DNA of 64,000 bases from Patescibacteria group bacterium (GTDB lineage: Bacteria; Patescibacteriota; Microgenomatia; UBA1400; PJMF01). The stretch covers positions 92,746 through 156,745 of the forward strand of contig JBDTME010000002.1 in the NCBI GenBank assembly GCA_039934415.1, given 5' to 3'. The translations under genes and the position numbers were made by a program. The notes under the pieces are model-generated. The model saw nothing but the letters and a program-made list of their open reading frames with translations, was not told the origin of the DNA and ran no database searches. Shown one piece after another: positions 35,792 through 59,741 of the stretch. Within the stretch, counting starts at the first letter, position 1; every line of letters begins with the position of its first letter.

Positions 35792-37729
35792 CTACCCTTG
35801 TGTCTGTTGTTTTCGATCCGCTAACACTTTTGCTTGGGCGGCTTGTTGGTCGTTCATTTTTTGTTTGGCGAGTAATTCTTCTGGGTTGGTCGTAATCAGT
35901 TGATGTTCAGTGTCTGAAGCAATGACGCGCAGCGCCACGTGATTTTGACCAGCAAAGAAAATTCCTTCTCCCACATCTGAAGCTAAGAGTAGTCGTTGTT
36001 CACCTTCCGAAAGATAGAATGTTTGGGTCAAAATAGGCATCGAGGCACTTGATTGTTTCATCAAGAATTGAATCGAAGAGTTGGTCACGATGGCTTTGCC
36101 GTAATCGTTATTCAAGAAATCCTCTACATCCTGAGTGATTGTGGTAATACCCAAGAAGTATTTTCTGGCGCGTTTGGCGATGGAGTGGAGGAATGAGGCC
36201 GAATCGGCATACTTCATGAAGTACCACGCCTCATCAACAATCAAAATTCTTTTTTTCAGTTTTTTCTTTACACGAGTCCAGATAAAGTCCAAGATCATGA
36301 ACATTGCAATTGGACGCAGTTCTTCGTGTAAATCTTTAACCGAAAAAACCGTAAACGCGTTATGAATATCTAGATTTGATTTTTGGTCAAAAATACCGCG
36401 GAATGAACCTTTAATAAATTTCTCCAGTCGAGCAGATAAATTGAGCGCGTCTTGCGTCTCCATACCAATCAGGGCTTTATACAAGTCTTCCATTAATGGA
36501 GGCTCATTGGCTTGAGTTGCTGGATCTGGAGTAATGCCTTTGGCTTTATATGCTGCTACCAACGCTTGATCAAGAATAGCGTCTTCGGTTGGAGTCATCT
36601 CGCCCATCATCACTCTCAACAATGTGTGCAAAGAAATGATTTTTTGGCCTAGCTCGTTTTCGCCTTCTTCATAAACATTCGATAAATCAAATGGGTTGAT
36701 CTTGGTAGTGGCGCCGAAAGTGAAGTTAATATACTCGCCACCGACTGATTTACACAACTCTTCATACTCATGTTCAGGATCGAGAATCAAAATGTCCGCA
36801 CCAAAAATGAGTTGACGGAGGGCTTCGAGTTTAATTGTATATGATTTTCCAGCACCAGATTTGGCAAAGACGACCATGTTAGCATTTTCCAAACTGAATC
36901 GGTCAAAAATAACCAACGAACCATTATGCTCATTTAGACCATACACAATCCCATTATCTTGAGTCAATTCTGAAGACGTAAATGGAAACGTCGTTGCTAA
37001 AGAAGTCGTGTCCATGTTGCGCGTGATGAGTAACCGATCAACTCCCATTGGGAGTGTTGTTTTGAAACCATCTTCCATTTGTAGAGATGCTTTTTTGGAC
37101 ACAATGAGCAAACTTCCCAGCAATGATTGGAGTTGTTTACTACTACTCTCAAGCTTTTCTTTCGAGGTGTCCATTAACGTACAGTACAGACCAAACTGAT
37201 AGAAACGCTCAGAGCCTTTGGCGAGCTGTTCTTGCAGGGTGCGCGCATCTTCGAGCTTCACTTCCGTATTAATGTTGCTAATTTTCCCCGAACGAATGTC
37301 TGACTGAATTTCCGCTTCCATCTCCGTAATTTTGCGACGAAGATTGTCCAGAATCTTGTCGACCTCTTGGGGAAATATGTACATGCTAATATCGAGACGG
37401 TGCGGAAAATTAATTAACGGTGACAACCAATTTGCCGGGACTGTTCTGGGATACCCGGCGATGAAAAAGGTTCTAGTGTAAGTCGAGTTGATTTTTTGAT
37501 AAGTAAAGTCGACCTCAATTGCTTCTGGGGCGATGATGTCCTGAATGCTCACCAATCCTTGCGCAAACTGTTTCAAGACCTTCTGGTTTTCCAGGTCTTG
37601 TGTTGCTTTCTGTTGCTCTTCTTGAGAAACGGGTTTCTTTTTCAAAAAGGGCAGTGGTAGGTTGATTGAGAATTTGGGCATCACTCGATTAATTATCCAT
37701 GCCTGGTTGTGGCGTACTTGGCATTTCAC
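35792..37729 (-). CDS. type IV secretion system ATPase, VirB4/TrbE/PrgJ family
   Basis: Walker A VVFAKSGAGKSYT, Walker B RILIVDEAWYF and an overall 645-aa VirB4-like domain organisation. Confidence 0.8.
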   Translation of the reverse strand: MKCQVRHNQAWIINRVMPKFSINLPLPFLKKKPVSQEEQQKATQDLENQKVLKQFAQGLVSIQDIIAPEAIEVDFTYQKINSTYTRTFFIAGYPRTVPANWLSPLINFPHRLDISMYIFPQEVDKILDNLRRKITEMEAEIQSDIRSGKISNINTEVKLEDARTLQEQLAKGSERFYQFGLYCTLMDTSKEKLESSSKQLQSLLGSLLIVSKKASLQMEDGFKTTLPMGVDRLLITRNMDTTSLATTFPFTSSELTQDNGIVYGLNEHNGSLVIFDRFSLENANMVVFAKSGAGKSYTIKLEALRQLIFGADILILDPEHEYEELCKSVGGEYINFTFGATTKINPFDLSNVYEEGENELGQKIISLHTLLRVMMGEMTPTEDAILDQALVAAYKAKGITPDPATQANEPPLMEDLYKALIGMETQDALNLSARLEKFIKGSFRGIFDQKSNLDIHNAFTVFSVKDLHEELRPIAMFMILDFIWTRVKKKLKKRILIVDEAWYFMKYADSASFLHSIAKRARKYFLGITTITQDVEDFLNNDYGKAIVTNSSIQFLMKQSSASMPILTQTFYLSEGEQRLLLASDVGEGIFFAGQNHVALRVIASDTEHQLITTNPEELLAKQKMNDQQAAQAKVLADRKQQTQG

Positions 37730-38885
37730 CTACTTTACCTATTGGTGGTGTTCCGGCTTGATTGAGAGTCTGGTCAATGACACTTTGTGGGTCAGGCATC
37801 GTTGACGAATTCACTGCGGACGTCATTGGTGTTTCAGGTGGTGTTGAGACGGTTGGCGACTCGCTTACAGAGCTACCTGGCATCGCGGCTGGCGTAGTCG
37901 CACTTGGAACAGCAGGGACTTCAGGGGTGCTCATGGGAGCAGGTGAAGTAGATGCCATTTGAGGTGGTGTTGCAAAACCAAGATCTGTTTTCGTAAAATC
38001 TGGCATTTCTGGTGTGGTGCTCATGGGCGTTGGAGCAGCTGGAGTCGCTGGCGCAGCCGTGAATGCTGGTGTTTCGGTCATGGTTGGAGTAGGAACGCTA
38101 GGAGCTGGAGCTGGTTGCATCGTTGGATTTGGTTGTGCTGCCGGAGTTGGTTGAAGACTTGTTGGCATGGTTGGGGTGTCAATCATAAAATCTCCTTGGA
38201 TTTTTGCCTGGACGAGAGGCGTAGTATAATTTGCTGTATCCGTTACTTTTTGACCTTCAAACGACTCAGGGTTGTATGAAGAGTATAGCATCTGGATCAG
38301 TTCTTGAGTGGTAAGTTGTCTGGAATACAAACCAATTCTGGCTAGTTGGTCGATAAGGTGATCGCGACGTGGTATCAGATTCGTTTTGGCTTTTTCAATG
38401 ATGTAATTCTTTTCAAAACTCGACAGCGACTTACTTTTGGCACCAGGAATGACACTCTGTGTGGTGAGACCCATCTCAACTGCTGACAGTGGGATGATGA
38501 TGTAAAACTTCTTATCCAGAACGTTTTGATCTTGAACGAGTGACTCCACAAAAGAATGGTACTCTTTTATTTTTTGTCTATAGATTTGGTTTGTCGCCGT
38601 GTCTTCTAAATCTTGAATTTTTTTGAGATAGGCTGTCACGTCTTTTGGTTGAGAACGGATGACGATCTGGATCGGATAACTCAATGAGTTAAGCAAAGCA
38701 GCATAAGCGTAAATCGTCGCGTCTTGTTCACCTTCCGAGAGAAGACCGAAGTTCATCGCAGAGACCGTAATGACGAGTGATGCTGCTCCATCGCCAAGAA
38801 TAATCAGATCATTGGTAATGTCGTACAGATCCAGGAAGAGCTGAGTGGTGGAATTGCTGACGGTATCAGTTTTTTGCTTTGCCAT
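37689..38885 (-). CDS. hypothetical T4SS-associated protein with a Pro/Thr/Ala-rich C-terminal half
   Basis: Its stop overlaps the VirB4 start by 41 nt (translational coupling). The ~240-aa N-terminal globular part is followed by a low-complexity PTPAAQP-type region. Confidence 0.4.
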   Translation of the reverse strand: MAKQKTDTVSNSTTQLFLDLYDITNDLIILGDGAASLVITVSAMNFGLLSEGEQDATIYAYAALLNSLSYPIQIVIRSQPKDVTAYLKKIQDLEDTATNQIYRQKIKEYHSFVESLVQDQNVLDKKFYIIIPLSAVEMGLTTQSVIPGAKSKSLSSFEKNYIIEKAKTNLIPRRDHLIDQLARIGLYSRQLTTQELIQMLYSSYNPESFEGQKVTDTANYTTPLVQAKIQGDFMIDTPTMPTSLQPTPAAQPNPTMQPAPAPSVPTPTMTETPAFTAAPATPAAPTPMSTTPEMPDFTKTDLGFATPPQMASTSPAPMSTPEVPAVPSATTPAAMPGSSVSESPTVSTPPETPMTSAVNSSTMPDPQSVIDQTLNQAGTPPIGKVGEMPSTPQPGMDN

Positions 38886-38922: not shown

Positions 38923-39990
38923 TTACTCACTTGCTCGTATTTCGATTGGGTCAAGAATAGTGTTATTAAGCTCAAGTTTCTGAGTTGGAAACAGTATACC
39001 TTCTTTCTCTGCTTTCATAAAATACTCACCATTTTTGAGAGGAGTGCTGATGTAAAACTGTCCAATTTTGTTTGTTCTGACTGCGCGAACTGGCATGCCT
39101 TGATCGTCAGCAATTTCAACAATAGCGTTTTCAACGATGTTGCCAACCTGGTCAAACACCATACCGACAACAATGTTGGGTTGTGTTGGTTTCTTGGGAA
39201 AGGGGAGAGTGTCAGATGTTTGAACGTTGAGTGCAGCTGAGTGTTGTGCTGTGGGATCATCAACAACTAGAGAAGCGGCATTAAAAACGTCTACTACTTC
39301 TGAAGTAGTTTCAGGTGCAGGTGCTTCTACCGGAACAGTCACTTCTTCAATACTTGGCGGAAGAGTCTCCGGAATTTGTTCAGCTGTCAATCTTTCGTCT
39401 TCGTAAGGAACATTGGTTTTAAAGAGATTATCAAATTGTTGTAGTGGATGTTGTTGTGCTGTAAGGTCTGGTTTGGTTAGTAGTTCAACGGCATCTACTG
39501 TTTCGACGTGTACAGTGTCGAACAGCGATAGGACCGCACTCATCTGCTGGGCTTCTTGGTATGCCAGTGGATCTAAAGCAGACTCATCTGGAAGAGTGTG
39601 AATATACTCATAAATACGCTGTTGTTTTAAAGGAGATAAATCAAGTTCGTCTTGAAACGTCGTAGTTTCTTTCGTGGTATATGTTAAGTAGTCGGGCAAG
39701 TTACCTGATTTTCTCCAATAAAAGAGTGTTGGTTTATAAATTGCTCGAAATAAAGCGATGAACCATTGGTCGAGTGGACGGCCTTCATAGGGAACGAACG
39801 CGATCATTGCCCCAAGTCCAACGAAAAAAACAATCAGCGGCCACTTGATTACGCTATATAAATTCGTTTGATAAATCACCACTCCTAACAAAATTCCCGC
39901 ACCCAACTCCAAAAACTGCTTGAGCGTCATGTTCCCAATCAGGTGAAATTCGTAGCTAGTGACAGCTTGTGGTATCGGATGATCTTGCAT
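38923..39990 (-). CDS. hypothetical membrane protein: a PrgI/VirB3-like 2-TM N-terminus and a C-terminal carboxypeptidase-regulatory-like beta domain
   Basis: The two N-terminal hydrophobic helices occupy the position and size of VirB3/PrgI upstream of VirB4. The C-terminus carries the motif NKIGQFYISTPLKNGEYFMKAEKEG. Confidence 0.35.
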   Translation of the reverse strand: MQDHPIPQAVTSYEFHLIGNMTLKQFLELGAGILLGVVIYQTNLYSVIKWPLIVFFVGLGAMIAFVPYEGRPLDQWFIALFRAIYKPTLFYWRKSGNLPDYLTYTTKETTTFQDELDLSPLKQQRIYEYIHTLPDESALDPLAYQEAQQMSAVLSLFDTVHVETVDAVELLTKPDLTAQQHPLQQFDNLFKTNVPYEDERLTAEQIPETLPPSIEEVTVPVEAPAPETTSEVVDVFNAASLVVDDPTAQHSAALNVQTSDTLPFPKKPTQPNIVVGMVFDQVGNIVENAIVEIADDQGMPVRAVRTNKIGQFYISTPLKNGEYFMKAEKEGILFPTQKLELNNTILDPIEIRASE

Positions 39991-40078: not shown

Positions 40079-41137
40079 TCATTCTACCTTAACGGCTGGT
40101 GAGATAGCTTCGACGTTAAAGATGCTATTGTTTTTGTCTTTTCCAACGCCGTAAAAATGGATGTATGGCAGAATGTATCCATTCTGTTCGTTTTGTCTGT
40201 ACTCCAAGGTGGCCGAGCTAAACTCAACATTGGAGAGGTTCTCGGCATTTGGTTCAATAGCATCAAAGTTTCCTGCGTGAATATAGGTGATGAGACCGGC
40301 AAGCATCCTATCCTCGACTCCACCAAGCCCCAGAGAGTTTACGATTTGTACTTGTTCAAAACTGCTTGGAACAGGATAAAAGCTGATTTCTAAAATACTT
40401 GCATTTTTGTCAACTCTAATGATCGCTGGAGATTGAACCTTATCACTGGAAATGAATGGAATATTGTCTACTAAAGTGTTGAGTGTAATTTTGTACGCAT
40501 TTGTTGAAGCCTCGTCTTTTGCTGGTTCAGTACTTTCTGGATTTACGCTTTGAGGTTCTGGTTCTGAAAGTGTGTAGTTTTGGAACAACTGGTGTTCGTC
40601 GATAAACGACCGAATTTTTTTTGCTATTTCCTCATGAGTTACGGTTGCCGTTTTGGGTAAAGTATCATCTAAAATGCTGAGCAGAATGTCTTTCTTATAC
40701 GCAATGAGTGTCGCGTTGCCACTCGTTGTCAACTGATATTCTTGGTTGGCATCTTGCCAAGCGTTGCTTGTCCCAGGTACTGGAGTAAGCGGAAGTTGCT
40801 TAGCGAGTTTTTGTATGGTTGTTTCAATTGTTTCTGGTTGCAAGGCTTGATAAACAGCCAGCTTGCTAGGCATGCTCATTGTCAAGTTCTTATCGAAAGT
40901 GATTTGTGCTTTATATGTTTTTTCTGTAGTGACCACGGTTTCCGCTGGAGGAGGTGTTGGTGTCAGTGCCTGCAAAATAGCCGAAATAACAACAGCCAAA
41001 CCCATTATTACAATAAACACTCTCAACCATTTCTTCTGAAATAGTTTTGTGATGAATGATGGAAGTTGCAATCGATTATTTTCCATAATATTCGTCACAT
41101 CTTGGTCCTTCAGGTACTTTGCCAGCAGTGCTGACAC
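40079..41137 (-). CDS. hypothetical membrane-anchored protein (T4SS locus)
   Basis: 352 aa with one N-terminal TM helix. Its start overlaps the end of the preceding gene (41076..41137). Confidence 0.35.
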   Translation of the reverse strand: MSALLAKYLKDQDVTNIMENNRLQLPSFITKLFQKKWLRVFIVIMGLAVVISAILQALTPTPPPAETVVTTEKTYKAQITFDKNLTMSMPSKLAVYQALQPETIETTIQKLAKQLPLTPVPGTSNAWQDANQEYQLTTSGNATLIAYKKDILLSILDDTLPKTATVTHEEIAKKIRSFIDEHQLFQNYTLSEPEPQSVNPESTEPAKDEASTNAYKITLNTLVDNIPFISSDKVQSPAIIRVDKNASILEISFYPVPSSFEQVQIVNSLGLGGVEDRMLAGLITYIHAGNFDAIEPNAENLSNVEFSSATLEYRQNEQNGYILPYIHFYGVGKDKNNSIFNVEAISPAVKVE

Positions 41138-44100
41138 CTAATGTTTGAATTAAGGCATAGTCACTCAAACCTCTAATCTCATAGTGTAAGTGATTTCCAT
41201 CAGATGCTCCACCAGGACCATGCGTACTATCAACATGACCTACTAATTGTCCACCCTCAACCGTTTCGCCCACGTGGACGACGATTCCACCATCAATCTG
41301 ATGGGCGTAATAAGAAAGCCAACCACCGTGATCAATGACTAACAGATTGCCAAACGCATTATTGTCACGTTTAGTGGTGACAACTGTAACAACGCCTGGT
41401 GCAGCGGCGTAGATAGGAGTGTTTAATGGAGCCGCAATGTCGTAGGCGTCAGGACGAACTTTGAATCCGCCACAATGACTCCAACTTGGATGTGTAATAC
41501 ATTGTTGAGTTAAAACTGGGTGACTTATGGGACCAGTACCATATGGAAGTTGAGTCACCCTCCCTTTTACAGGCCAACAAGGAGGAACGGTTGTTGTCGG
41601 ACAATCTCCAAAACAGGTCTGTGCCCGACTGGTACTGCTGTCAGCTTGACCAGCTGCGGTGATGTTTGCCTTAATATCATTTTTGACCAAAGAATCACTA
41701 AAACGAGAGTCTGATGCATCGACGGTGAATTGAAGATGAATCGGCTGATCTGCTGTGAGTGGTTGGCCTGCCAAAGCAGCGAGTTGGTCAGTGAGTTCCT
41801 GAGGGAGAGCTGGCGGATCAATCACGTTCGAATCTTTATCAATTGCACTCATAGTATCTGTGAGTCCCGTAATGACGATCTCTTCCGTTGCCTCAGGTTT
41901 TTTGGAGAGGTCAATTGTGTATGTGATCGGACCTTGCGCATTAGAGTTGCTGGGTTGGGCAGTTTTTTTCAAAGTGATGTATCGCGATTCGTCAGCATCT
42001 AGCGAAAAGTATGGTGCGACTTGAGTGACGCTGGCATCGGGGAGGAAAGCGCTTAGGATCATGGATGTGGTGAAGATGTTTGCGATGACAATAGTTACTA
42101 GTGGGATGCCAACGGCAGCAGCTATAGTAGCCGTAGAGCCTGTGATACCTTGTGCAGTCAGTGTCTGTGCAGCTCCTTCTAAGAAGCCTGTAGTTTGACC
42201 CGCTGCAGTTGAAACTGCCGGTCTGGCAAAGTTGCTTAGTGCAGCTTTAGTACTTGATGGAAGAGCGCTCGCATAACTAGATGTACTTCCGGCATCAGAG
42301 GCGCCTTTCATAAATCCTGCTATGCCGCCCGCGATTGCTCCAACACTTGCCCCGATGGCTGTTCCAACCACTGGAAAAAAAGAGCCAATGATTCCACCGG
42401 CCACGGCACCACCAGCCACACCACCAAGTGTTGTGCCTGCCACACCCTGCACCATGTTTGTGATGATTCCGTAAATGGCTGCACCAGTTCCGGCAGCACC
42501 ACCAACGACAAGCACACCTTTTTTAAGCTGTGATGAGCCAATTTTTGTAGCCGTCCCCTGAAGACTAGCGGCATTGAGATTTCCTATGCCCTTGGCTCTG
42601 CCTAACCAGTCTCTTAAATTACTTAATCCTTGAACATTTCCTACCTGTGGAGCGTTCCAAGATTGATGTGGGACTGCTGTGTCATATAAAGCCTTATTGA
42701 AAGCCGCACGACCTTGATTGTCGAGCTGAGTTTGTCCTGCCGGAAGAAATTGCTGGCGATCAACCCCCAACATATTGCTGTAAAAGACTTGTTCTTGTTC
42801 ATCAAGATTGTTAATTTGTGCCTGTAACTGGTTGAGATACTGATTGCGAACGTAGAGCGCCTCAGCTCTCAGAAATTTTTCTTGTTCTGAAGCTTCTGCT
42901 GGAGTAATTGCCAAATCTCGAGTGAAAAAAGCATGAGCCAGAACTTTATCTGTATTGGCTTTATATTTGGGGGAATACGTTTTGATCAATTCTCGATATT
43001 GCTCCGTGGAAAGAGAGAGGGGTGTTGTCTCTCCGGGCTCAAGGCTATGAGTAAGTAAATTATTTTGGGTGTAGTTTGCCAACGCATGTTTTCGTTGCGC
43101 GACGTACGACTCCATGATCTGTAAAACCTCTTGATTGTTTCTGAGACTAGGATCGAGCTCGTTGAGCATGACCTTAAGATTGTCAGAGAGGAGATGAGGA
43201 CTACCGAGTGATAACGCGTAAGAATCAAGAGTATTGAGAATATTTATTTCAGCGGAGCCATCTTTATTATAAGTTCGTAATAAAGAGACGAGCGCTTCTT
43301 TGGGATTGTCTTTGCTGAAGCGTTGAAACTTGGCAAAGTTTTCGAAGTTGGCTTGAGTTACTGTTTTGCCATTTGTCTGCAATTGTTTGAGATAGACATC
43401 TATTTGTCCGAGCAGTTTTTTGCGTTCATCTGCTCCGAGAGAAAAAATGTTTTCTGGAAAGATCTGACGGAGTTCAAGAGGATCTAAGGCAGAGATTCCA
43501 GTCCCTTTCGTTCTTGGAGCTCGTCTCAAAATTTCATCGCCGAGGTTTTCGATTGACTCTGCAGAAACCATTGCTTCAAAAGTCGCAATTTGCTTGAGTT
43601 GCTTTTTAAACTCTTGTTTGGCGAGTTCTGAGTAATCTTGTGGAGCATCTTCTGAGTCGATTTTTTCTGAAAAGAGTTGGGTGGCATCCTCGGCAGTTTT
43701 AAGTGATCCTTTGAAACTCGTGTCGTTAAAAGCCTTGAGTTCAAACTTCTCTTTTAAAATTTCAGTTTTTAAGAGAAAGTACTCGTTGTTGCATAAGCGC
43801 TTATAAATTTGATCAACGTGTGAAAGCAGTTGTTGTCGGATCGTAATTCTGTCGGTGATTGATAGCCGGCCAGATTCAGCAAGTAGCAATGCGAATTGAG
43901 GGTTTTCTTGAAGATAGAGAGAAATGACTCCTGCAATATCCTCTTGGAGCGAGAATAATTGAAAGTCGAGTTGTCTTTGTTCATCGGCTGGTAGTTTGTT
44001 GTAAAACGTTCGCCAATCAGCGACATCTAGAGCCGAGTTCAACACTTCATTCATCAGGGCGCCAGAGTCTCTCCAACCTTCTTGAGCGGCGATTTTTTGA

Positions 44101-44771
44101 ACTTCAAATGGTGAGGGAGGTGTTTGTTCGTCCGTGCGGGGTACATTCTGAGCGTCATTTTCTGCTGGAGTTTGTTCTGTCTGAGATTTCCTGAAAGCGC
44201 CACCGCCGACATAACTCCCATCGACTTCTTTCTCAGATTTGTCTTTGGTTTTTTCTTCGTTTGCTTGAGCTTCGTCTGGAGCTGCTTCCCCAGATATTTT
44301 TCGTGCGATTAAATCCTCACTGATACTCCTCAATAGTTGGAGAGCGTTGTTTTCTTTGAGCAAGTACCGTCGGACATATTCATCGCGATTGAGTATGTCA
44401 CTTTCTGATTTCTCGTCATTGGGAAGGAAAAACAAGGGCATTTTTTCAAATACTTTTGGATTCTTCCGGTTAACTTCAGTGAAGATGAGATTTAAAAAAT
44501 AGCGAACTTGGTTTTTATCCTCCGCTGCTTCGGATGCAGTAAAGATTGAGTTGAATCGGGTAGGAATAGTTTGGTTGACCTTGCTACTCACTAGTTCATC
44601 TAAAGTGTCGACGATTTCATCTAGAAAATCAGGGAACTCTGGAAGTGCCAGTACTGTTTCTAGGGAGAGCGGGTCGAAATCAACTTTGTGTTTTTCTAGC
44701 TCGTCGATATACGTGGATAGCGCACTAGAATTCAGAAGCGTCGATGGTTGTTCAAATACCGTAGTTGCCAT
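41076..44771 (-). CDS. large T4SS-associated protein with a glycine-zipper TM region and a C-terminal M23 peptidase domain
   Basis: The C-terminal M23 (LytM) motifs are HGGWLSYYAH, H.VGETVEGGQLVGHVDSTHGPGGASDGNHLHYEIR. The central Gly/Ala-rich segment is GVLVVGGAAGTGAAIYGII...GGIAGF. 1,231 aa. Confidence 0.7.
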   Translation of the reverse strand: MATTVFEQPSTLLNSSALSTYIDELEKHKVDFDPLSLETVLALPEFPDFLDEIVDTLDELVSSKVNQTIPTRFNSIFTASEAAEDKNQVRYFLNLIFTEVNRKNPKVFEKMPLFFLPNDEKSESDILNRDEYVRRYLLKENNALQLLRSISEDLIARKISGEAAPDEAQANEEKTKDKSEKEVDGSYVGGGAFRKSQTEQTPAENDAQNVPRTDEQTPPSPFEVQKIAAQEGWRDSGALMNEVLNSALDVADWRTFYNKLPADEQRQLDFQLFSLQEDIAGVISLYLQENPQFALLLAESGRLSITDRITIRQQLLSHVDQIYKRLCNNEYFLLKTEILKEKFELKAFNDTSFKGSLKTAEDATQLFSEKIDSEDAPQDYSELAKQEFKKQLKQIATFEAMVSAESIENLGDEILRRAPRTKGTGISALDPLELRQIFPENIFSLGADERKKLLGQIDVYLKQLQTNGKTVTQANFENFAKFQRFSKDNPKEALVSLLRTYNKDGSAEINILNTLDSYALSLGSPHLLSDNLKVMLNELDPSLRNNQEVLQIMESYVAQRKHALANYTQNNLLTHSLEPGETTPLSLSTEQYRELIKTYSPKYKANTDKVLAHAFFTRDLAITPAEASEQEKFLRAEALYVRNQYLNQLQAQINNLDEQEQVFYSNMLGVDRQQFLPAGQTQLDNQGRAAFNKALYDTAVPHQSWNAPQVGNVQGLSNLRDWLGRAKGIGNLNAASLQGTATKIGSSQLKKGVLVVGGAAGTGAAIYGIITNMVQGVAGTTLGGVAGGAVAGGIIGSFFPVVGTAIGASVGAIAGGIAGFMKGASDAGSTSSYASALPSSTKAALSNFARPAVSTAAGQTTGFLEGAAQTLTAQGITGSTATIAAAVGIPLVTIVIANIFTTSMILSAFLPDASVTQVAPYFSLDADESRYITLKKTAQPSNSNAQGPITYTIDLSKKPEATEEIVITGLTDTMSAIDKDSNVIDPPALPQELTDQLAALAGQPLTADQPIHLQFTVDASDSRFSDSLVKNDIKANITAAGQADSSTSRAQTCFGDCPTTTVPPCWPVKGRVTQLPYGTGPISHPVLTQQCITHPSWSHCGGFKVRPDAYDIAAPLNTPIYAAAPGVVTVVTTKRDNNAFGNLLVIDHGGWLSYYAHQIDGGIVVHVGETVEGGQLVGHVDSTHGPGGASDGNHLHYEIRGLSDYALIQTLGVSTAGKVPEGPRCDEYYGK

Positions 44772-45134: not shown

Positions 45135-45136
45135 AT

Positions 45137-50982: not shown

Positions 50983-51190
50983 TTTGTCCCTCTTCGGTTT
51001 TCGGATCGAAGAGGGATGTTTTTAAAAAAATAAGAATTATTTATTAACAAACCAAAAAAAGTCAGCTTTCTAACGTAACAGTCAGAGAATTAGCGCATTT
51101 ATAGAAATAGAACAAGAACGAAGTAGAGAAAAGCAGTACAGCTTATAACTTTAAAAACACTGAAAATACTCTAGAAATACCAGGCGTAAT

Positions 51191-51988
51191 ATGTTAAAAT
51201 CACGACCTTCTATGAAGAAAATGCTGAAAAGTGTTCTAGCGTTTTTGTTTTTGATTTCATTTTTTGTGCGTTTTTTCTCACCTGTTTCAGCTGAAGTAGT
51301 CGCACCAACGTGTTCGGCTATCTCTGTTCCGATAACTTTAACGGCCTCAGATGCCAATATCAATATTACCTTCAATCCATCACTTGGTTTACAAGATGAC
51401 GGGAGATATCGTTTCAACTACGAAGATGCTTCTGTGGATCATAATGTAACCGAGTACTTCGGTCGAGAAGACGATCGTTCAAATTGGAGTGTAGATTTTT
51501 CCTTTAACACTGTCATTGCCGCACCTCAGACGTTGGCACTACAAAATCTCGATGGACAACAGTTTTGTCTCGTTACTTTTCGATATGACCAAGCATCAAA
51601 CACTGTATTAGTGACCAAACCAGGTCAGGGGCAAACTCCAGAATCATTTAATCTGTGTCAACAAGCTGGTACCAATCACGGAACTTGTGATGCATGTTTA
51701 GCTAATGGCGAAATATGGACGGGTGTAGGATGCATTCCTTTCAAAACTGGCGTTGCAACCGTACGAGCAATTATTGTATTAGGACTCGGGATTACTGGTA
51801 CCGCGGTAGTACTAATGACACTCTATGCCGGGTTTATGTTTAGCACCTCGCAAGGTGATCCTAAACGAGTCGACGAAGCCAAAAGCGCTGTGACCTCAGC
51901 GATCATCGGCGCCTTTTTCATCATTTTCTCCGTCACCATCCTCCAATTCATTGGAGTAAGCATCTTGCACCTGCCAGCTTTCGGGTAA
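51191..51988 (+). CDS. secreted protein with a C-terminal T4SS pilin-like domain (candidate minor pilin/adhesin)
   Basis: A signal peptide, a ~150-aa domain, then GVGCIPFKTGVATVRAIIVLGLGITGTAVVLMTLYAGFMFSTSQGDPKRVDEAKSAVTSAIIGAFFIIF (helix - charged loop - helix), which resembles the small pilins at 290..1394. Confidence 0.5.
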   Translation: MLKSRPSMKKMLKSVLAFLFLISFFVRFFSPVSAEVVAPTCSAISVPITLTASDANINITFNPSLGLQDDGRYRFNYEDASVDHNVTEYFGREDDRSNWSVDFSFNTVIAAPQTLALQNLDGQQFCLVTFRYDQASNTVLVTKPGQGQTPESFNLCQQAGTNHGTCDACLANGEIWTGVGCIPFKTGVATVRAIIVLGLGITGTAVVLMTLYAGFMFSTSQGDPKRVDEAKSAVTSAIIGAFFIIFSVTILQFIGVSILHLPAFG

Positions 51989-52043: not shown

Positions 52044-53285
52044 GTGAAAAAAATTCTTCTCACTTTTTTGTTCGCTTTCCTCTTTTTGGCTACAAACGTC
52101 AAAGTAGTTTTTGCAGATAATGACACTTTAGGGGTTTACTGTGATGTTACTGTGAATGGTGTGGCGTTGTCGTCAACTCAAGATTCTGCGCCGACAATCT
52201 ACGCGAGTAGAAAAGATGGAGCAAATTACGTCTACCCTTTTAAAGTGTGTGGAAATTTAGCGCTTTTGAATAATCTTCCTACTGGTGTCAAACCTGTGAT
52301 CGACATGACACCGTATCACTTCGACTTTACTGCTTTTCAACCGTCAGAAAGAATAAACCTGACTCAAGATGGTAGTTGTTTAGTTGGTGAATACTCCAAA
52401 AACCTTGCACCAAATGGGAAGACCGTCGACTCCGTTTATGATGTTGAAGGTGATAATTCTGGGAATACGCCTATTTGTCATCGAGTGTTCGCTAGGCTAG
52501 CACCAAGTGTGTTAGCGGATACCGCTGCTTGGGCGAACGCTAGTACGATGTGCGGGACAATCGGCCTGGACCCTGTTGCACCAATCCACAATGACAACGT
52601 GACTATTGATTTTGTTCTCCCTGAACCATTTTGGACAAATGCGATTAACTCCCCAGAAGGAATCTCATACAGTGGTTTACATTATAAATTGATTCGTTCT
52701 GCTGATGGCGCTGAGCTACAAAATGGAGAAGTTTCTGGCATTATAAATGGAGGACTGGCAGATCCTCATATCTTTGAACATGTTGACCACATGGATGCCG
52801 GTAACTATCGAGTAAAATTCGTCTTAGAAGGGAGTAATGGTAATTTAGATATTTGCGAAAGAAGTTTCGACGTTGGTACTCAGAATGATCCAGGGAAACT
52901 GAATGATAGCGTAGGTTCAGTTGACGAATTTAAGTTGTGTAATCAAGCAGGTCCGCCAGGTTCCGACTCTTACACGGCATGTAACAAATGTTTTTATAAC
53001 AATAGCGGTATTTGGACTGGAGTGGGGTGTATTCCTTATACGAACACTGCCTTGATGGTTAGAGCTCTTATCGTTTTAGGATTGGGCATTGCAGGCACTG
53101 CGGTAGTACTGATGACACTAGCTGGGGCATTTTTGATGTCCACCTCTAGGGGAGAACCTCAAAGAGTTGAAGAAGCGAAGAGTTTGATTACATCTGCCGT
53201 TGCTGGAATATTTTTCATCATTTTTTCTGTAAGTATTTTACAATTTATCGGTGTGAGTATTCTGCATATCCCTGGGTTCGGATAG
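52044..53285 (+). CDS. secreted protein with a C-terminal T4SS pilin-like domain, paralog of 51191..51988 with a larger N-terminal domain
   Basis: The C-terminal ~110 aa is nearly identical in pattern (IWTGVGCIPYTNTALMVRALIVLGLGIAGTAVVLMTL...RVEEAKSLITSAV...). The ~300-aa N-terminal domain is different. Confidence 0.5.
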   Translation: MKKILLTFLFAFLFLATNVKVVFADNDTLGVYCDVTVNGVALSSTQDSAPTIYASRKDGANYVYPFKVCGNLALLNNLPTGVKPVIDMTPYHFDFTAFQPSERINLTQDGSCLVGEYSKNLAPNGKTVDSVYDVEGDNSGNTPICHRVFARLAPSVLADTAAWANASTMCGTIGLDPVAPIHNDNVTIDFVLPEPFWTNAINSPEGISYSGLHYKLIRSADGAELQNGEVSGIINGGLADPHIFEHVDHMDAGNYRVKFVLEGSNGNLDICERSFDVGTQNDPGKLNDSVGSVDEFKLCNQAGPPGSDSYTACNKCFYNNSGIWTGVGCIPYTNTALMVRALIVLGLGIAGTAVVLMTLAGAFLMSTSRGEPQRVEEAKSLITSAVAGIFFIIFSVSILQFIGVSILHIPGFG

Positions 53286-53299
53286 GGTATAATATCTTT

Positions 53300-54136
53300 A
53301 TGATCAAGCTAAAGTTTTTTGTCCTTCTGCTTTTTTTCGTAAGTTTTTTTGTTGTGACCTCTCCAGCTCATGCTCAACAATGTATGACTGATGGTAGTGT
53401 TCCTTGTGCTGCTGGATTTGTTTGTGATTGTACTGGCGAGCCTGGATGTGGCCAAGATGCGACACGTGGTGAGTGTAAGCCAGTGCCGAAACCAAATGGT
53501 TCACTGTGCGGAGCTAATACTGAGTGTACGAGTGGGTATTGTAATATTGTATGTACCGTACCACCTTCATCCCTGCCTAGCTGTATTCCTGGATCAGCTT
53601 TTGACAACAAAATAGACCCTCGGATGAGTAGTTGTTTGGAAGGAACTGTTATTCGCTATCAATGTGGAACAGGCTATCAACTGGACATAAGTACAAAAAT
53701 CTGTAATGCACTCCCGACGACTAACTCACCCGCCCCAGCACCATCGGACAGTACTGTGCCGACTCCTCCAGATTCTTCAAGCGGAATAGCCAACGGGCTT
53801 TTTTTGTTTTTAGTAAATCCCTTAACTGTCACTGGAAATAAGAATCCACTGGCAGGAATCATTCAAGGTTTTACGAATGTCACCCAAACCTTCACCACTC
53901 CGGCTGGTTTTCTCAATGCCTTGATGCCTTTCCTTTTTTCGATTGCTGGCATAATATTGTTCGTGATGATCATTTGGGGTGGTTTTGAGATGATCTATGG
54001 GGCAGCCGATACCAAGGCTCAAGAGGCTGGTAAACAACGTATTACCGCCGCTCTAATCGGCTTTACCCTTCTGTTCATCTCTTACTGGATCGCGCAGATT
54101 TTGCAGGCGATCTTTGGGGTGAATATTTTAGGGTGA
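53300..54136 (+). CDS. Cys-rich secreted protein with a C-terminal T4SS pilin-like domain
   Basis: An N-terminal Cys-rich module (CMTDGSVPCAAGFVCDCTGEPGCGQ...). The C-terminus FLFSIAGIILFVMIIWGGFEMIYGAADTKAQEAGKQRITAALIGFTLLFISYW matches the pilin architecture. Confidence 0.5.
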   Translation: MIKLKFFVLLLFFVSFFVVTSPAHAQQCMTDGSVPCAAGFVCDCTGEPGCGQDATRGECKPVPKPNGSLCGANTECTSGYCNIVCTVPPSSLPSCIPGSAFDNKIDPRMSSCLEGTVIRYQCGTGYQLDISTKICNALPTTNSPAPAPSDSTVPTPPDSSSGIANGLFLFLVNPLTVTGNKNPLAGIIQGFTNVTQTFTTPAGFLNALMPFLFSIAGIILFVMIIWGGFEMIYGAADTKAQEAGKQRITAALIGFTLLFISYWIAQILQAIFGVNILG

Positions 54137-54194: not shown

Positions 54195-57100
54195 TTGAGA
54201 AATATGGTAAAATCTGGGTCAAATATGAACGAAAGAAGAGTCGAGGTACCAGTCGATCCAGAAAAGCGTTTCGTTAAAGAAACGTTTGGTATGATTTTTG
54301 CTGATCTGCCTATCAAGGCGGATTTTAAACGCAGGATTATCTCAGCTCTGCGTGTACTTGATGAAGCTATTTTGGATGTTAACGGTCAACCTTTAGATCT
54401 TAGTCCCATTAAAATAAAAGTACAAAAAGATAATATTGAACTGTTGTACGTAATGATTTCCTCATTGCGTACCTCTCCCGAACTGTTAGAAAGTCCCGAC
54501 GCCATAGATAGCTTTGAAGATCAATTGAAAGTTGTGGGAGAACAAGTTGGCAGTATCTTGGATACTTACGAGAACATCCTAGCTGATATTGAAAATCCAC
54601 TTCCAGTCGTCGCAGTAGAAACCCCTCCATTGAGTGATAAAGAAGTCGTTGATCAATTTATTGCAAGTGAACCTTCAATCGCTTCGGAGTATCAACAAAT
54701 ACTCAATATCACACCTAATTTCCCAGATTTGACAATTCGAGACAAGTACCCGTTTGCTGGAGATGATGACGAAGGTCGAGACCGAGCAGGCCTAATCATC
54801 CAAGCAGATAAATTGAGGATCACCTTGCTGACTAGAGCTGTCGAAAATGCACTCGAGCGTCGATATGTGGGTAAATCCGAATCAGAAGCCCGAGAAAAAA
54901 TCATTATTCAACAAAAGCTATTACGACCTTTAGATGAGTTGTCAGATAAACTGCAAGGACAAATTTTGAAGGAGTTCTTAGAGTCATATGACAGAGCTGA
55001 ACTAGGGGAATTATTATATGGGGAGGAGGACGGGTTACTTGATGAGCCACCTTTCACCACCTTACTTGCAGATATTGATGAAGTGGGGGATAAGGTATCC
55101 AAGGAACCTGTGGGATATTCTGGATTAACCAGTTTGGGAACATTAAAGCAAAGAATAGAGGCTAATTTTAAGGCAGCAGAAGTCCAGGCACAAGGTCGTT
55201 TACTCGCTTTAATTCCAGGCAAATTTCATGAAGAATTTCAGCGTACCTGGTCAACTCAGTATGCATTGAAGACAGCTCAATCTTTGAGAGCATTAGAGAA
55301 GCTATTTTATACAACTTTCGAAAAAACAGCTAATGATATTGGTCAGGAAGCTGATGGAATAATTCAGAACTATCAATCTTTGGCAACTCCAGATTTGCCT
55401 ACTTTATATACAGAGCAGAAGAAACTTTCCGACAAAAAAACAGAATTAGACAAATTGTTATACGTCAAGTTTTTTAGTGCTACCGAGAACAAAACCACTA
55501 CTGACATCGAAGACAAGGTAAAAGCAAAAATAAGCGAAATAGATAAGATAGAAGAAGAAATAGAGACTAAGCAGCTCGACCTGTGGAAACAAGATGTTTT
55601 ACCAGGTGAAATCCATCTCCTAGAGTTAAATGCCGCTGATACAGACGCAAAAACAGCTCTAGCTGGTACTGATAAGACGGTGATTGCAGCCGCGAAAGAA
55701 AGATTAGAAAAAGCCAGAAAAGAAGCGTTTGCGTTGGTACCAACGAAAGTCCTTGTCGACACGCAGGAAGTTCTTATCAAAGGTGCTTCCCACTACCTGA
55801 ATCAGCTCGTTGCAGCATCAGACCAGACAGTATTGGCTGCTGCTGAGAGATTGTCCACTCTGGACGAGGTTGAGCGTGAGGAAATGAAAACTAGTTTGTC
55901 TGGCCTCATAGAAAAGATCAACAAGCTCGACCTAGAGGATGAAACGCATACACTTGATTCACTGAAAAAAGAATATGCCGATGAGTTTAAAGATCTTGAA
56001 GATCGATTTGATAAAGGCGGCATTCCACCTGCATCAGTAAGTTCCAGATACGCAGAAGCCAAGAAAAAGCTTGGCATCATGGTAGAGTCGGCAACTATTC
56101 GTGGATATCCATTTTCTAAGGTTGTGAGTATTGCGAGCGAGAAAAACTATGACGTGTTTGTTGATACAAAGTCTACTCGAACAATCGCTGATCCTTATGA
56201 AAAGGCAATTGTGAAGAGAGTTCAGGCCTTATACTACACAGAAACTGCAAAGTTTGGAGTAAAGAACGCTGATGGCAGTATTGATGAAAATGATCCAGAA
56301 ACTGAAAAGCTACGAATTGAGCACCGAAGGCAAAAAGTCCGGATGTTTGCGTACCGTTACCGCGATGACAACTATCCTAAGACCGGTGTCCCAGCTGCAA
56401 AGCAGGAGAACTTATATAGCCTTTTTGGTCCTAGAAGACTTTCACGAAAAGACATCTTAGAGGGTGTCACCAATCATGAAATTTATGGTCAGCATACTCA
56501 AGATTTGCTTAGATATGTTATCGATGTCGTCGGGGAAGATATTCCTACAAGATCACCTAAACCAGCTGAAATGAATCCAGACGGAACAGTGAAAGAGAGA
56601 GCAAGGTTTTATACGGCAAGAGAGCTAGAAATTTGCTACGATGATCTTGCAAAAAATCCAGACGGACCTCTGAAGTTAGAGAATCATTTAAAAGAAATTT
56701 TTGTCGCTAGTGGTTTGTTGCCACTAGAACATTTTGAGATTGTCTGGAACCTATATATCACTTTCGATCTGGCTTCTATTTCTTTAGCGAAGCTCCAGAA
56801 AAGAACCAAAACACGAAGCCATAACCCCACTAAGCCTGTGGACACTGAGTACTTGTCCTATCCATTCCATGTCATGAGTCACAAACGAAACAGATATGGT
56901 AATTTGGACTCCGCACATCAGCATTTGTTGGAATTTACAGGTGATTACCCGAATGACGAAGAGAAAGACCAATTTGGTAATTTAGTGTACCGAGATGATA
57001 GCGGAAACGTTGTGCCAGCTGGAACTCGGGATTCTACAACTTATCTGTGGGCTGGAAATCAGAGTAAAAGGCATGGAACACACGTGCGGACGGTGAGAAC

Positions 57101-57941
57101 TACTCAAAGACTTGTCAGATTATGGACTAATGCATATTTTCCGACTAAAGGCATAGAAGGCAGGATTTACACTGATAAAAATCGACAAAAATTAAACCCA
57201 AAAACAGGAAAACAAGAGGATAACGACAATTATGAGGGCAATTGGAACAAGCCGATTTTCCCAGATCATTTCCAGTTTTTAACAGAATCTGAAGACAGAA
57301 TTGGAAATATTGATCTCTACACAACGGCGCAAAAGGGGTGGGATAAAATGCTCAAGATGACTGTTGGCCCGATAAGTGCCGGTCTGAAAATGCACGACAT
57401 CTTTGGAGCTGAGCATGGGTTATACACTGAATTTTTGAATAATGGTATCGGTTTAGCTAAGGTTGTTGCTGGCCCACACCACAACTGGTTTGTGCCAATG
57501 TTGAGATATCTTATTGGAAGAATAGGCGTTGGTTTTTATTCTGAGGCTGTGAACCACCGAGAAGAGTTGCGAAAGGAGTTGGTTGAACAGCTCAAGATTG
57601 GTACTGGAGTGCCTCGTGGTGCAGTCGGATTTGATGAGTTATTGGCCGAGCTAGAGGGGAAAGATGCAACTCAATTTGCGGGAAGTAGATGGAATAAAAT
57701 GCCTGATATCCTTAGACCGTTTGATCAAGGTAGAAGAAGAGATGAGCGCGTGGCTTACATGAGAGCATGGTATAAGGACAAGACTGACAAGGAGCCACCA
57801 TCTTTGTTGCAGCGAGTAAATCCTGGTAAAGATGAGTACATCAAGACCTATTATGATGCAATTGATGAAGTCATACCATTGCCTGTAATTATTGATCGTG
57901 CATCTGCCAGTACAGATACTGCAGAAAAGAAAGCAGCCTAA
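54195..57941 (+). CDS. large hypothetical cytoplasmic protein (1,248 aa) in the T4SS neighbourhood
   Basis: No signal peptide, TM helix or NTP-binding motif. The N-terminal half is acidic coiled coil and the C-terminal half is globular. A TTGTCG-17-TAAAAT promoter-like element lies upstream. Confidence 0.45.
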   Translation: MRNMVKSGSNMNERRVEVPVDPEKRFVKETFGMIFADLPIKADFKRRIISALRVLDEAILDVNGQPLDLSPIKIKVQKDNIELLYVMISSLRTSPELLESPDAIDSFEDQLKVVGEQVGSILDTYENILADIENPLPVVAVETPPLSDKEVVDQFIASEPSIASEYQQILNITPNFPDLTIRDKYPFAGDDDEGRDRAGLIIQADKLRITLLTRAVENALERRYVGKSESEAREKIIIQQKLLRPLDELSDKLQGQILKEFLESYDRAELGELLYGEEDGLLDEPPFTTLLADIDEVGDKVSKEPVGYSGLTSLGTLKQRIEANFKAAEVQAQGRLLALIPGKFHEEFQRTWSTQYALKTAQSLRALEKLFYTTFEKTANDIGQEADGIIQNYQSLATPDLPTLYTEQKKLSDKKTELDKLLYVKFFSATENKTTTDIEDKVKAKISEIDKIEEEIETKQLDLWKQDVLPGEIHLLELNAADTDAKTALAGTDKTVIAAAKERLEKARKEAFALVPTKVLVDTQEVLIKGASHYLNQLVAASDQTVLAAAERLSTLDEVEREEMKTSLSGLIEKINKLDLEDETHTLDSLKKEYADEFKDLEDRFDKGGIPPASVSSRYAEAKKKLGIMVESATIRGYPFSKVVSIASEKNYDVFVDTKSTRTIADPYEKAIVKRVQALYYTETAKFGVKNADGSIDENDPETEKLRIEHRRQKVRMFAYRYRDDNYPKTGVPAAKQENLYSLFGPRRLSRKDILEGVTNHEIYGQHTQDLLRYVIDVVGEDIPTRSPKPAEMNPDGTVKERARFYTARELEICYDDLAKNPDGPLKLENHLKEIFVASGLLPLEHFEIVWNLYITFDLASISLAKLQKRTKTRSHNPTKPVDTEYLSYPFHVMSHKRNRYGNLDSAHQHLLEFTGDYPNDEEKDQFGNLVYRDDSGNVVPAGTRDSTTYLWAGNQSKRHGTHVRTVRTTQRLVRLWTNAYFPTKGIEGRIYTDKNRQKLNPKTGKQEDNDNYEGNWNKPIFPDHFQFLTESEDRIGNIDLYTTAQKGWDKMLKMTVGPISAGLKMHDIFGAEHGLYTEFLNNGIGLAKVVAGPHHNWFVPMLRYLIGRIGVGFYSEAVNHREELRKELVEQLKIGTGVPRGAVGFDELLAELEGKDATQFAGSRWNKMPDILRPFDQGRRRDERVAYMRAWYKDKTDKEPPSLLQRVNPGKDEYIKTYYDAIDEVIPLPVIIDRASASTDTAEKKAA

Positions 57942-58022: not shown

Positions 58023-59741
58023 CTAATTTGCTTGTCCACCAGAAGCACCACCTGTTTTTTCAGGCTTGTCATTTTTAGGTTCAGTAGGTTTATTTTGTCC
58101 TTTTCTAATGTCATCAAGTTGGCGATTAATTGTGTCTGGATCCAGCAACTTACCTTCTCTTGCTCTATCAATAGCACTCGCTGTAGATTGACCAGCTTTA
58201 TATCCAGCTCCACCCCAATTAACGAATCCACCTCTTGTCTTGCCTGCAGCATCCTTGTGACCATACACAACACCCCTAAGAGTTTGAGCAAATGCTTGTG
58301 TCGGATTCTGAGCAGTTCTGTATCCCATGTATCCACCCACAGCAGCTCCAGCAGCACCACCAGCACCAAGTCCGACCAGCGGAGCAGCATACTGATTACC
58401 TTGAAAGACATTACTAACAGCCTTCCCACCAAACTCTTCAAAGATACTGGCTGGCTTGTATTTACTGACGATTGCGACGACTTCTGGTAATAGCATGATA
58501 GCGGCGATGCCGCCAATGAAACCGATTGTGTCACTTTCATTTCTTCCTGGTACAAATGGGGGAATGAAACCGCCACCTTGTAATTGTTGTGGCAGACTAC
58601 CATTTGTTTGAGCGTTTACAGATGGAACGATGGCCGAACTTTGAACCGCGCTACCTCCATTGATCATCATAAAACCAATGATAATGAATACTAACAGTAC
58701 TGGAAACACAGCGAGATTGACGGCTAAAGCTTTGACCCAATTGCCAAAAGCATTGCCGTTAATCGCCCCTAACATCAAGATAACCGGTGCGAAAATAATG
58801 GATAAGATGATCTCAAAATAGACTTTGATCAACGAGAAGAATGTCCGGAACATGGCAAACAAAACCGCAACAAAGATAATTAAAGTAGCGAGAACACTGG
58901 TAATGCCACCAGCAACACTTCCTAATGCATTATTAATACCTTGATCGTTTGAGATGACATTATTGACGAAACTACCAACGGCTTCGCCACTCTTATTTGC
59001 AAATCCGCTTCCAATCACTCCTCCAAATACGTCAAAAATGTTCAAATTTAAGATCTTAAAATTGGCGAGCAAATCACTCTGAATTAATCCTGCCCCTCCA
59101 AACATTGTGATTAAGAAGTACATCATGATCCACATGATGTCGATCATGAGACCAGCGATTGCATAAGAGAAAGAGACCGCTAATAAGGCAATGATAATTC
59201 TAGGCAAGGCTTGTTGGATAGTCACCGCAGTTTGACCGCCCAAATTTTGTCGGAACATGATTCCGAACCCAATTGCTAAGAAAATAAATACAAAGAAAAC
59301 ATAAGAAATGTCGCGGAAAATTTTCCATAGCGCCAAGACTGGTTGCAAAGCGGAAAAACCAATGCCTTGTGCATAGGCGGGTTGTGCTCCCAGATGTCCA
59401 AATAAGTCAGCAAAATATGCTTTTTCTGAAGCAGGTTGGGTATAAGCAAAACCAATCATTTTGCCTACTGCGCCCATTGCTCCAGTGTCAGTTAGCCCTG
59501 TGCCATTACCATTCGGATCACCATTAAATAAATACAGTAGACCGTAGGCATTTTTTTCCAAACTGTAAACTATTGTATGATCCAAGTTGGTTTTATTATC
59601 TCTGGTGTTTTCCATCGTTTGTCTAAAATTGTCATTGACGTTACCACCACTAATTTCCGCAAAGGTTTGAGGGACGAAAAAAGCCGAGGACACGACGGAA
59701 AGAATGAACAAAAAGAAGATAGAATACAGAGCTTTCTTCAT
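58023..59741 (-). CDS. TrbL/VirB6-like polytopic T4SS membrane protein
   Basis: A signal peptide, 6 or more TM helices and a Gly-rich hydrophilic C-terminal tail. 572 aa, the size and topology of the TrbL/VirB6 family. Confidence 0.5.
   Translation of the reverse strand: MKKALYSIFFLFILSVVSSAFFVPQTFAEISGGNVNDNFRQTMENTRDNKTNLDHTIVYSLEKNAYGLLYLFNGDPNGNGTGLTDTGAMGAVGKMIGFAYTQPASEKAYFADLFGHLGAQPAYAQGIGFSALQPVLALWKIFRDISYVFFVFIFLAIGFGIMFRQNLGGQTAVTIQQALPRIIIALLAVSFSYAIAGLMIDIMWIMMYFLITMFGGAGLIQSDLLANFKILNLNIFDVFGGVIGSGFANKSGEAVGSFVNNVISNDQGINNALGSVAGGITSVLATLIIFVAVLFAMFRTFFSLIKVYFEIILSIIFAPVILMLGAINGNAFGNWVKALAVNLAVFPVLLVFIIIGFMMINGGSAVQSSAIVPSVNAQTNGSLPQQLQGGGFIPPFVPGRNESDTIGFIGGIAAIMLLPEVVAIVSKYKPASIFEEFGGKAVSNVFQGNQYAAPLVGLGAGGAAGAAVGGYMGYRTAQNPTQAFAQTLRGVVYGHKDAAGKTRGGFVNWGGAGYKAGQSTASAIDRAREGKLLDPDTINRQLDDIRKGQNKPTEPKNDKPEKTGGASGGQAN

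Follow-up and report, generated by a model that had tools for sequence, protein, structure and literature searches.

Do type IV secretion system (T4SS) genes that lie scattered among the housekeeping genes of a bacterial chromosome belong to a mobile conjugative element, or do they encode a fixed machine of the cell? This question is raised by 64,000 nucleotides from a Patescibacteria group bacterium (GenBank assembly GCA_039934415.1, contig JBDTME010000002.1, positions 92,746 to 156,745 of the forward strand). This whole stretch is called the window hereafter, and all positions below are given in its coordinates. A first-pass annotation of the window had described a VirB4 ATPase cluster, two groups of pilin genes and a VirB6-like gene dispersed in chromosomal DNA. 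The reading at which we arrived, and which we hold with high confidence, is that these genes encode a chromosomal, vertically inherited T4SS of the Patescibacteria (candidate phyla radiation, CPR), derived from mating-pair formation systems of the type MPF_FATA and likely serving in host contact rather than in conjugation.

The core of the system is a run of five same-direction genes on the minus strand, transcribed from 44771 to 35792, in which neighbours overlap or lie 37-88 nt apart. All five overlapping genes that the first-pass annotation had placed between 35.8 and 44.8 kb were found there as open reading frames (ORFs), and its VirB4, PrgI/VirB3 and M23 assignments passed the curated cut-offs of NF045971, PF12666 and PF01551, respectively. 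In order of transcription, the cluster encodes the M23 protein, a 352-aa membrane protein, a PrgI/VirB3-like protein, a TrsD-like protein and VirB4. The end of virB4 at 35792 is followed after 428 bp by the start of dnaA at 35364, which places the cluster directly upstream of dnaA.

The VirB4 ATPase (645 aa, 35792..37729, minus strand) is of the monoderm MPF_FATA/CD1110 type. It scored 373.9 bits against NF045971, the model for CD1110-family VirB4 proteins (cut-off 325), and matched PF19044 with an E-value of 5e-27. Searches against the PDB returned Thermoanaerobacter VirB4 (4ag5, E 8e-51) and TrwK of R388 (E 1e-4), and both the Walker A (GAGKS) and the Walker B motif (ILIVDEAW) are intact in the translation. 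Judged by its sequence, the identity of the protein as VirB4 is unambiguous. The gene next to it encodes a protein of 398 aa (37689..38885, minus strand) that had been described as PT-rich. The ORF was confirmed, and its product is more than a PT-rich protein, being TrsD-like and homologous to the N-terminus of VirB4. The homology covers residues ~1-210, which correspond to the N-terminal part of full-length VirB4, and residues ~230-398 form a Pro/Thr-rich, low-complexity tail of variable length. When NF045975 (VirB4_plasma), the model of the full-length VirB4 of Mycoplasma ICEs (integrative and conjugative elements), was used for comparison, the TrsD-like ORF matched positions 93-284 (E 2e-8, below the curated cut-off) and the VirB4 ORF positions 277-893. 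In all 70 same-strand related loci the TrsD-like ORF is separate from virB4 yet adjacent to it, and a fusion was seen in 0/70. Since the two proteins cover consecutive parts of the same model and never form one ORF, the split is ancient and conserved and no frameshift.

The PrgI/VirB3-like membrane protein (355 aa, 38923..39990, minus strand) scored 31.6 bits against PF12666 (cut-off 27). It carries a C-terminal extension of ~270 aa that ends in a CarboxypepD_reg-like beta-sandwich (PF13620, 24.5 bits, sub-threshold). Full-length matches to the protein occur in many related loci, so the beta-sandwich fusion is conserved in this lineage. Upstream of it, a single-pass membrane protein of 352 aa (40079..41137, minus strand) consists of a transmembrane helix at residues 35-62 and tandem alpha/beta ectodomains and belongs to no family; it is a possible candidate for a VirB8-type scaffold. 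The first gene of the cluster encodes a membrane-anchored M23 peptidase of 1231 aa (41076..44771, minus strand; PF01551, 64.9 bits against a cut-off of 28.7) with a transmembrane region at residues ~752-911 and the M23 domain at 1109-1201. From its sequence, this protein is likely the component that opens the cell wall, the role of VirB1. The canonical HxxxD spacing is lacking in residues ~1065-1205. A conserved SxSH lies 3-8 residues ahead of a conserved DA[YF]DIAAP; HLHYE is retained in full, and the domain starts with a CWP that is likewise conserved. The succession CWP...SxSH...DAYDIAAP...HLHYE is kept in relatives upstream of virB4.

Relatives of the cluster were collected by a back-translated pattern scan over one genome per species, which yielded 173 confirmed relatives of VirB4. 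The top 80 of these 173 are 69-92% identical and are mostly labelled Patescibacteria, Pacebacteria, Woesebacteria, Microgenomates or Cerribacteria, together with many metagenome-assembled genomes (MAGs) named 'uncultured Pseudomonadales'. Dozens of MAG records titled 'uncultured Pseudomonadales bacterium', and one titled 'Limisphaerales', carry a VirB4/dnaA region of the Patescibacteria type; these records stem from bulk submissions and look mislabelled. Synteny was assessed by tblastn of the window proteins against the related loci, with at least 2.5 kb of flanking sequence required. TrsD and PrgI were found in 61/61 loci with such a flank upstream, and dnaA was present in 61/69 loci with such a flank downstream; its median distance downstream of virB4 was 412 bp, and the two genes shared a strand in 59/66 loci. 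Further downstream in related loci, dnaN and then a DUF4012 protein followed in the same order. The arrangement PrgI-TrsD-VirB4-dnaA thus recurs in dozens of Microgenomates-type Patescibacteria species. The M23 protein (detectable in 22/49 loci) and the 352-aa protein (16/49) are both fast-evolving. VirB4 identity exceeded DnaA identity in all loci that have both proteins (66/66; medians 73.9% versus 46.1%). The fixed site upstream of dnaA, together with a conservation of VirB4 above that of DnaA, argues for strong purifying selection and vertical descent and against decay or mobility. The cluster is a vertically inherited core-genome machine and no ICE, and its origin-proximal synteny bears out the first-pass annotation, which had preferred a chromosomally fixed machine to a mobile element.

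The same data bear on a rival explanation, according to which the cluster is what remains, in a decaying or domesticated state, of a Gram-positive-type ICE or conjugative plasmid, with relaxase, coupling protein and integrase outside the window or recently lost. Such an origin would account for a VirB4 of the CD1110 conjugal-transfer family, for a PrgI-VirB4-hydrolase order like that of prgH-I-J-K-L on pCF10, for parts scattered over 60 kb and for two toxin-antitoxin pairs nearby. One of these pairs (44877-45400) consists of a YafQ/ParE-like toxin and a ribbon-helix-helix (RHH) antitoxin and is situated between nnrD and the M23 gene; the other, toxin-antitoxin-like pair (49193-50001) is formed by a PIN-domain protein and an upstream 135-aa ORF. 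The YafQ/RHH pair is missing at this spot in the closest relative (L001) and therefore looks like a local insertion. A remnant is also contradicted by the intact state of all core ORFs, by the constant site upstream of dnaA across species-level loci and by the VirB4 conservation described above. Profile scans, which covered all window ORFs above 300 aa and most above 200 aa, detected no VirD4/type IV coupling protein (T4CP), VirB11, relaxase, integrase or transposase in the 64 kb, in agreement with what had been noted from the letters of the sequence. There are no convincing att-like flanking direct repeats in the window, and its GC content stays at ~0.41-0.44 throughout, with no GC anomaly or compositional break. 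An ICE with relaxase and integrase borders, which the first-pass annotation had named as the contrary case, was not found in the window. We therefore regard the remnant explanation as very unlikely. In the genomes of Patescibacteria, VirD4-like genes are mostly situated far from virB4 (PMC12102498), so that a window without them is hardly informative on the genome as a whole.

The pilins of the system are encoded away from the core cluster. Seven genes with a VirB2-like pilin domain were found in the window, five of which score at or above the cut-off of PF18895 (T4SS_pilin), which is 26.6 bits. Three large genes on the plus strand, already recognised as pilin-domain genes at 51.2..54.1 kb, encode proteins with a Sec signal, an ectodomain and a C-terminal VirB2-like pilin domain. 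They comprise a 265-aa protein (51191..51988; ectodomain of ~150 aa; 26.3 bits), a 413-aa protein (52044..53285; ectodomain of ~320 aa; 22.1 bits) and a 278-aa protein (53300..54136; Cys-rich ectodomain; 32.0 bits). The first two fall below the cut-off, and the third lies above it and has an additional weak TrbC/VirB2 match. The 265-aa and 413-aa proteins are paralogues with pilin domains that are 68% identical, one recent pair; otherwise the pilin domains share 18-36% identity in pairwise comparison. At the left edge, the four small pilin genes that had been reported there were likewise confirmed. They form a minus-strand array of VirB2-like pilins (2..1394) with genes at 1074-1394 (26.7 bits), 681-1055 (27.0 bits), 290-676 (34.7 bits) and 2-286 (26.8 bits), the last being cut by the edge. 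A public contig of 2.9 kb (L086), identical over the array, shows that it comprises at least six genes. In total, ten VirB2-like pilin domains were scored, two of them off-window; seven pass the curated cut-off and three lie just below it.

Divergent from the small-pilin array lies a gene for an ECF-type (extracytoplasmic function) sigma-70 factor (1490..2083, plus strand; matches to Sigma70_r2 and r4_2), which is a candidate regulator. Two related loci, L081 and L083, encode a VirB6-like protein with 34-38% identity to the one in the window, and in both an orthologous sigma factor (41-43% identity) is again divergent from a pilin array. Orthology and the same divergent layout make the sigma/pilin pairing a conserved module. 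The genes that are dispersed in the window are contiguous in these two loci, where the ECF-type sigma factor gene is divergent from six to eight small pilin genes, followed by the gene for a ~1,200-aa protein and then by the VirB6-like gene. Within 10 kb of this block, L081 encodes a giant protein with an M23 domain, and L083 has a gene of 1,242 aa that is weakly similar, by tblastn, to the M23 protein of the window. Because of this contiguity and the orthologous sigma factor, the scatter in the window is best read as a rearrangement of one system. The opposite proposal is that the VirB4 operon, the pilin arrays and the 572-aa VirB6 candidate described below are independent of each other, the last being an unrelated, transporter-like membrane protein. 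With the parts side by side in L081 and L083, we find this hardly credible.

The VirB6 candidate is a polytopic membrane protein of 572 aa (58023..59741, minus strand) with a signal peptide and at least five transmembrane helices. It had been called TrbL/VirB6-like (58.0..59.7 kb), and this call held for the ORF, the topology and the predicted fold and failed in profile searches. No Pfam or NCBIfam match was obtained at E-values up to 0.1. Against the PDB, both phmmer and a profile search built from 40 sequences came back empty, and an hhalign comparison with PrgH of pCF10 gave a probability of 0.6%. A profile of the 572-aa family, searched against 1.84 billion representatives, produced 4,625 matches; the best 150 of these are all close family members, with no annotated distant VirB6 relative among them. 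Likewise, Pfam domains are absent from all 120 listed homologues, each of which is named 'hypothetical protein'. Membership in the TrbL/VirB6 (PF04610) or PrgH sequence families was thus rejected, all sequence-based tests being negative. The PDB-wide best match of the predicted fold was TrwI/VirB6 by two methods. Since the sequence tests fail and the fold alone gives a signal, we do not file the protein in the TrbL/VirB6 sequence family; on the strength of the predicted fold, it likely works like VirB6. Abutting this gene is a plus-strand operon of three genes (59821-63131) that encode a 7TM_transglut membrane protein, an ATPgrasp_ST ligase and a MATCAP-like (PF08014) metallopeptidase, a peptide-ligase/peptidase set. 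The 7TM_transglut protein (59821-60813) was considered as the counterpart of a ~310-aa gene beside VirB6 in relatives; the two are unrelated, and the protein is part of the ATP-grasp/MATCAP operon.

Immediately after the large pilin genes, a plus-strand gene (54195..57941) encodes a soluble ORFan of 1248 aa. No transmembrane segment, signal peptide, family or PDB relative was found for it, and among 5.8 billion proteins it matches none but itself. It is also unrelated to the ~1200-aa proteins that occupy the same slot in L081 and L083. The slot as such, between pilins and the VirB6-like gene, is conserved, and its occupants are unrelated between genomes. The 1248-aa protein is a candidate T4SS substrate or accessory protein, and its membership in the system is uncertain. 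The 572-aa protein, the pilins and the slot can also be read jointly: the 572-aa family would be the long-sought divergent VirB6, the ectodomain pilins would be VirB2 proteins that display adhesins, and the ~1,200-aa slot would hold a secreted effector or tip protein. We put this forward tentatively and regard it as possible, though rather doubtful. If it were true, the ectodomain pilins would stand in for the missing VirB5/PrgB adhesins and set the host range, variable adhesin domains would be shown on the outside of a T4SS pilus, and the hyper-variable slot protein would be lineage-specific.

The first-pass annotation had remarked that such a pattern was reported for reduced-genome lineages and poorly characterised. 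The former is correct; the latter no longer applies after a survey of Patescibacteria T4SSs across 3,035 genomes (Quiñonero-Coronel 2025, PMC12102498) and a transposon-sequencing (Tn-seq) study (Wang 2023, PMC10633639). The survey describes a VirB4 clade nested in MPF_FATA, TrsD, PrgI/VirB3, arrays of VirB2-like pilins and M23-type hydrolases, an absent relaxase and a location near dnaA, dnaN and rnpA for which Microgenomatia are specifically included; the TrsD arrangement is its most abundant accessory component, and VirB6 is called 'scarce' in Microgenomatia (PMC12102498). In the Saccharibacterium Candidatus Southlakia epibionticum ML1, a T4SS cluster (SEML1_0006-0019) that includes a pilin array was found by Tn-seq to be essential for epibiotic growth (PMC10633639). 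Its genes SEML1_0008-0010 encode VirB4 (0008), a protein in the TrsD position (0009) and PrgI (0010), an order shared with the window, and the cluster further contains an NTF2-like protein, a structure-inferred VirB6 and the pilin array (PMC10633639). A 2025 FEMS review lists the Patescibacteria systems as a new T4SS type (PMC12857230).

The window resembles these systems in its MPF_FATA-type VirB4, in the separate TrsD-like and PrgI/VirB3 genes immediately upstream, in the divergent pilin arrays, in the M23-type hydrolase nearby, in the lack of a relaxase near virB4 and in its location at dnaA/dnaN/rnpA. It differs from them in several respects. The protein in the VirB6 role has 572 aa and no VirB6 or PrgH profile match, whereas the Southlakia candidate has ~1100 aa. 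In contrast to the surveyed systems, its components are distributed across more than 60 kb with housekeeping genes between them, three pilins carry ectodomains of 150-320 aa, PrgI ends in a beta-sandwich and an ECF sigma factor accompanies the small-pilin array. A system of this kind had thus been published in 2023-2025, and the window is a new example that leaves the picture of the system unchanged. What it adds is modest: a candidate VirB6 family, a possible VirB8-like protein, ectodomain pilins, the sigma/pilin module and the 1,248-aa ORFan. All but the ORFan are candidates for parts that the survey had not located in Microgenomatia. No T4SS before that of the Patescibacteria had been shown to be essential for its own carrier bacterium. 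Experimental work on it has so far come from Saccharibacteria, to which the window adds an intact example of the Microgenomates type.

Among systems outside the Patescibacteria, the MPF_FATA system of pCF10 (PrgH-I-J-K-L, PcfC, relaxase PcfG) shares with the window a VirB4 of the CD1110 family, a PrgI-family VirB3 directly upstream, and an operon that also encodes a single-pass membrane protein and a large cell-wall hydrolase anchored in the membrane. pCF10, however, is a plasmid with a VirD4-type coupling protein, a relaxase, MobC and LPXTG adhesins and without a VirB2 pilin, whereas the window has neither T4CP nor relaxase, and pilins take the place of adhesins. In the window, VirB4 moreover lacks the first ~175 residues, which are supplied by the TrsD-like ORF, and the hydrolase is an M23 peptidase instead of a lysozyme/CHAP protein. 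PrgH and PrgL of pCF10 have no profile similarity to the candidates found here. With the MPF_T systems of R388 and Agrobacterium VirB, the window has in common the VirB2-type pilins, a VirB4 homologous to TrwK and the predicted TrwI-like VirB6 fold. It departs from them in its presumably monoderm organism and in pilins that occur in large divergent arrays; VirB5, VirB7, VirB9, VirB10 and VirB11 were not detected in the window. The rvh T4SS of Rickettsiales is an MPF_T system of diderm bacteria with VirB8/9/10/11 and VirD4, in which VirB4, VirB6, VirB8 and VirB9 are duplicated. Like the system described here, it is chromosomal and dispersed, belongs to a host-dependent bacterium with a reduced genome, shows paralogy of components and has no role in conjugation. 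The present system, in contrast, is of monoderm MPF_FATA ancestry, and the pilins alone are multiplied.

In a second alternative, the system would be a DNA-uptake (competence) machine like the ComB T4SS of Helicobacter or the archaeal Ced system, and would bring in host DNA or nucleotides for a genome unable to make its own. CPR bacteria are generally known to lack nucleotide synthesis, VirB4 weakly matches CedB, the ATPase of DNA import in archaea (E 2.5e-11), recF is found 1.5 kb away from the core cluster, and the T4SS of the class ABY1 co-localises with comF, recG and radA (PMC12102498). The CedB match, however, reaches 42.9 of the 700 bits set as cut-off, and that to CedD 26.4 of 600, compared with the 373.9 bits obtained with the CD1110 model. 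A recF gene beside dnaA-dnaN is ordinary origin-region synteny, and the window yielded no gene for ComEC, ComF, DprA or a CedA-like protein. In Southlakia, deletion of comEC ends competence and not viability, whereas the T4SS is essential (PMC12857230); the function that makes the T4SS essential is therefore something other than ComEC-dependent DNA import. We consider a DNA-uptake function unlikely for the system in the window.

In the preferred reading, a T4SS for host contact, the system derives from a monoderm (MPF_FATA, Gram-positive-type) conjugation machinery that lost its DNA-processing half and gained VirB2-like pilins. Its working can be put as a sequence of steps, all of which are modelled on homologous systems. 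A VirB4 hexamer would act as the motor, docked at the membrane by the PrgI/VirB3-like protein together with the separate TrsD-like N-terminal module, and the 572-aa polytopic protein would take the part of VirB6 as a platform or channel in the membrane. The peptidoglycan would be opened locally by the membrane-anchored M23 peptidase, in the role of VirB1, and the 352-aa single-pass membrane protein may be a VirB8-type scaffold. VirB4 would then pull pilins from the membrane and polymerise them into an extracellular pilus. These would be drawn from a supply of at least nine divergent paralogues (at least six small ones and three with large N-terminal ectodomains), whose diversity, possibly including that of the ectodomains, may tune host contact under the putative control of the adjacent ECF sigma factor. 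The likely role of the machine would be contact, and exchange of proteins or other material, with a host bacterium during epibiotic growth.

Several points weigh against this reading. The role in host attachment and exchange is extrapolated from one Saccharibacterium, and no pilus, substrate or host has been seen for any Microgenomates-type organism. The view is restricted to 64 kb of the genome, and a VirD4 homologue or a relaxase could sit elsewhere. The placement in the Microgenomates/OP11 part of the phylum follows the record titles of relatives rather than a phylogeny. As for single components, the TrsD-like protein reaches 19.8 bits with the TrsD model NF041427 (E 6e-4), far below the cut-off of 200, and the VirB8-like assignment of the 352-aa protein is weak, with YycI/YycH-type proteins matching it better in structure.

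The window as a whole is a chromosomal stretch at the replication origin. Housekeeping genes of the origin region (rnpA-yidD-yidC-jag, dnaN, dnaA, recF) form the context of the cluster, with yidC at 30398-31177, rnpA at 31443-31766, dnaN at 32116-33216 and dnaA at 33760-35364; yidD and jag/khpB are also present. The intergenic region between dnaN and dnaA is likely oriC, with a cluster of DnaA-box-like 9-mers: 122 bp of it (33542-33663) hold 4 of the 19 such 9-mers (at most one mismatch) in the window, a total that is not above chance. Promoter and terminator scans of the window likewise gave results at chance level. Other surrounding genes include those for RNase H, a SpoIID-domain protein, nnrD, leuS, tsaD, a Kup transporter and the mevalonate pathway. 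The last comprises a plus-strand pair of a GHMP kinase and a diphosphomevalonate decarboxylase (4005-5958), with an undecaprenyl-diphosphate synthase as neighbour (6559-7257).

Two further regions stood out. The GC content of the window peaks (0.48) at 50130-51050, where long ORFs overlap on opposite strands, a Ser/Thr/Ala-rich ORF of 306 aa on the minus strand and a multi-transmembrane ORF of 271 aa with an acidic tail on the plus strand, neither of which belongs to a family. Beyond dnaN, a minus-strand gene (25911-29327) encodes the DUF4012 protein, which has 1,138 aa and is syntenic with virB4-dnaA-dnaN in 48/80 related loci, where it lies ~3.5-4 kb beyond dnaN.

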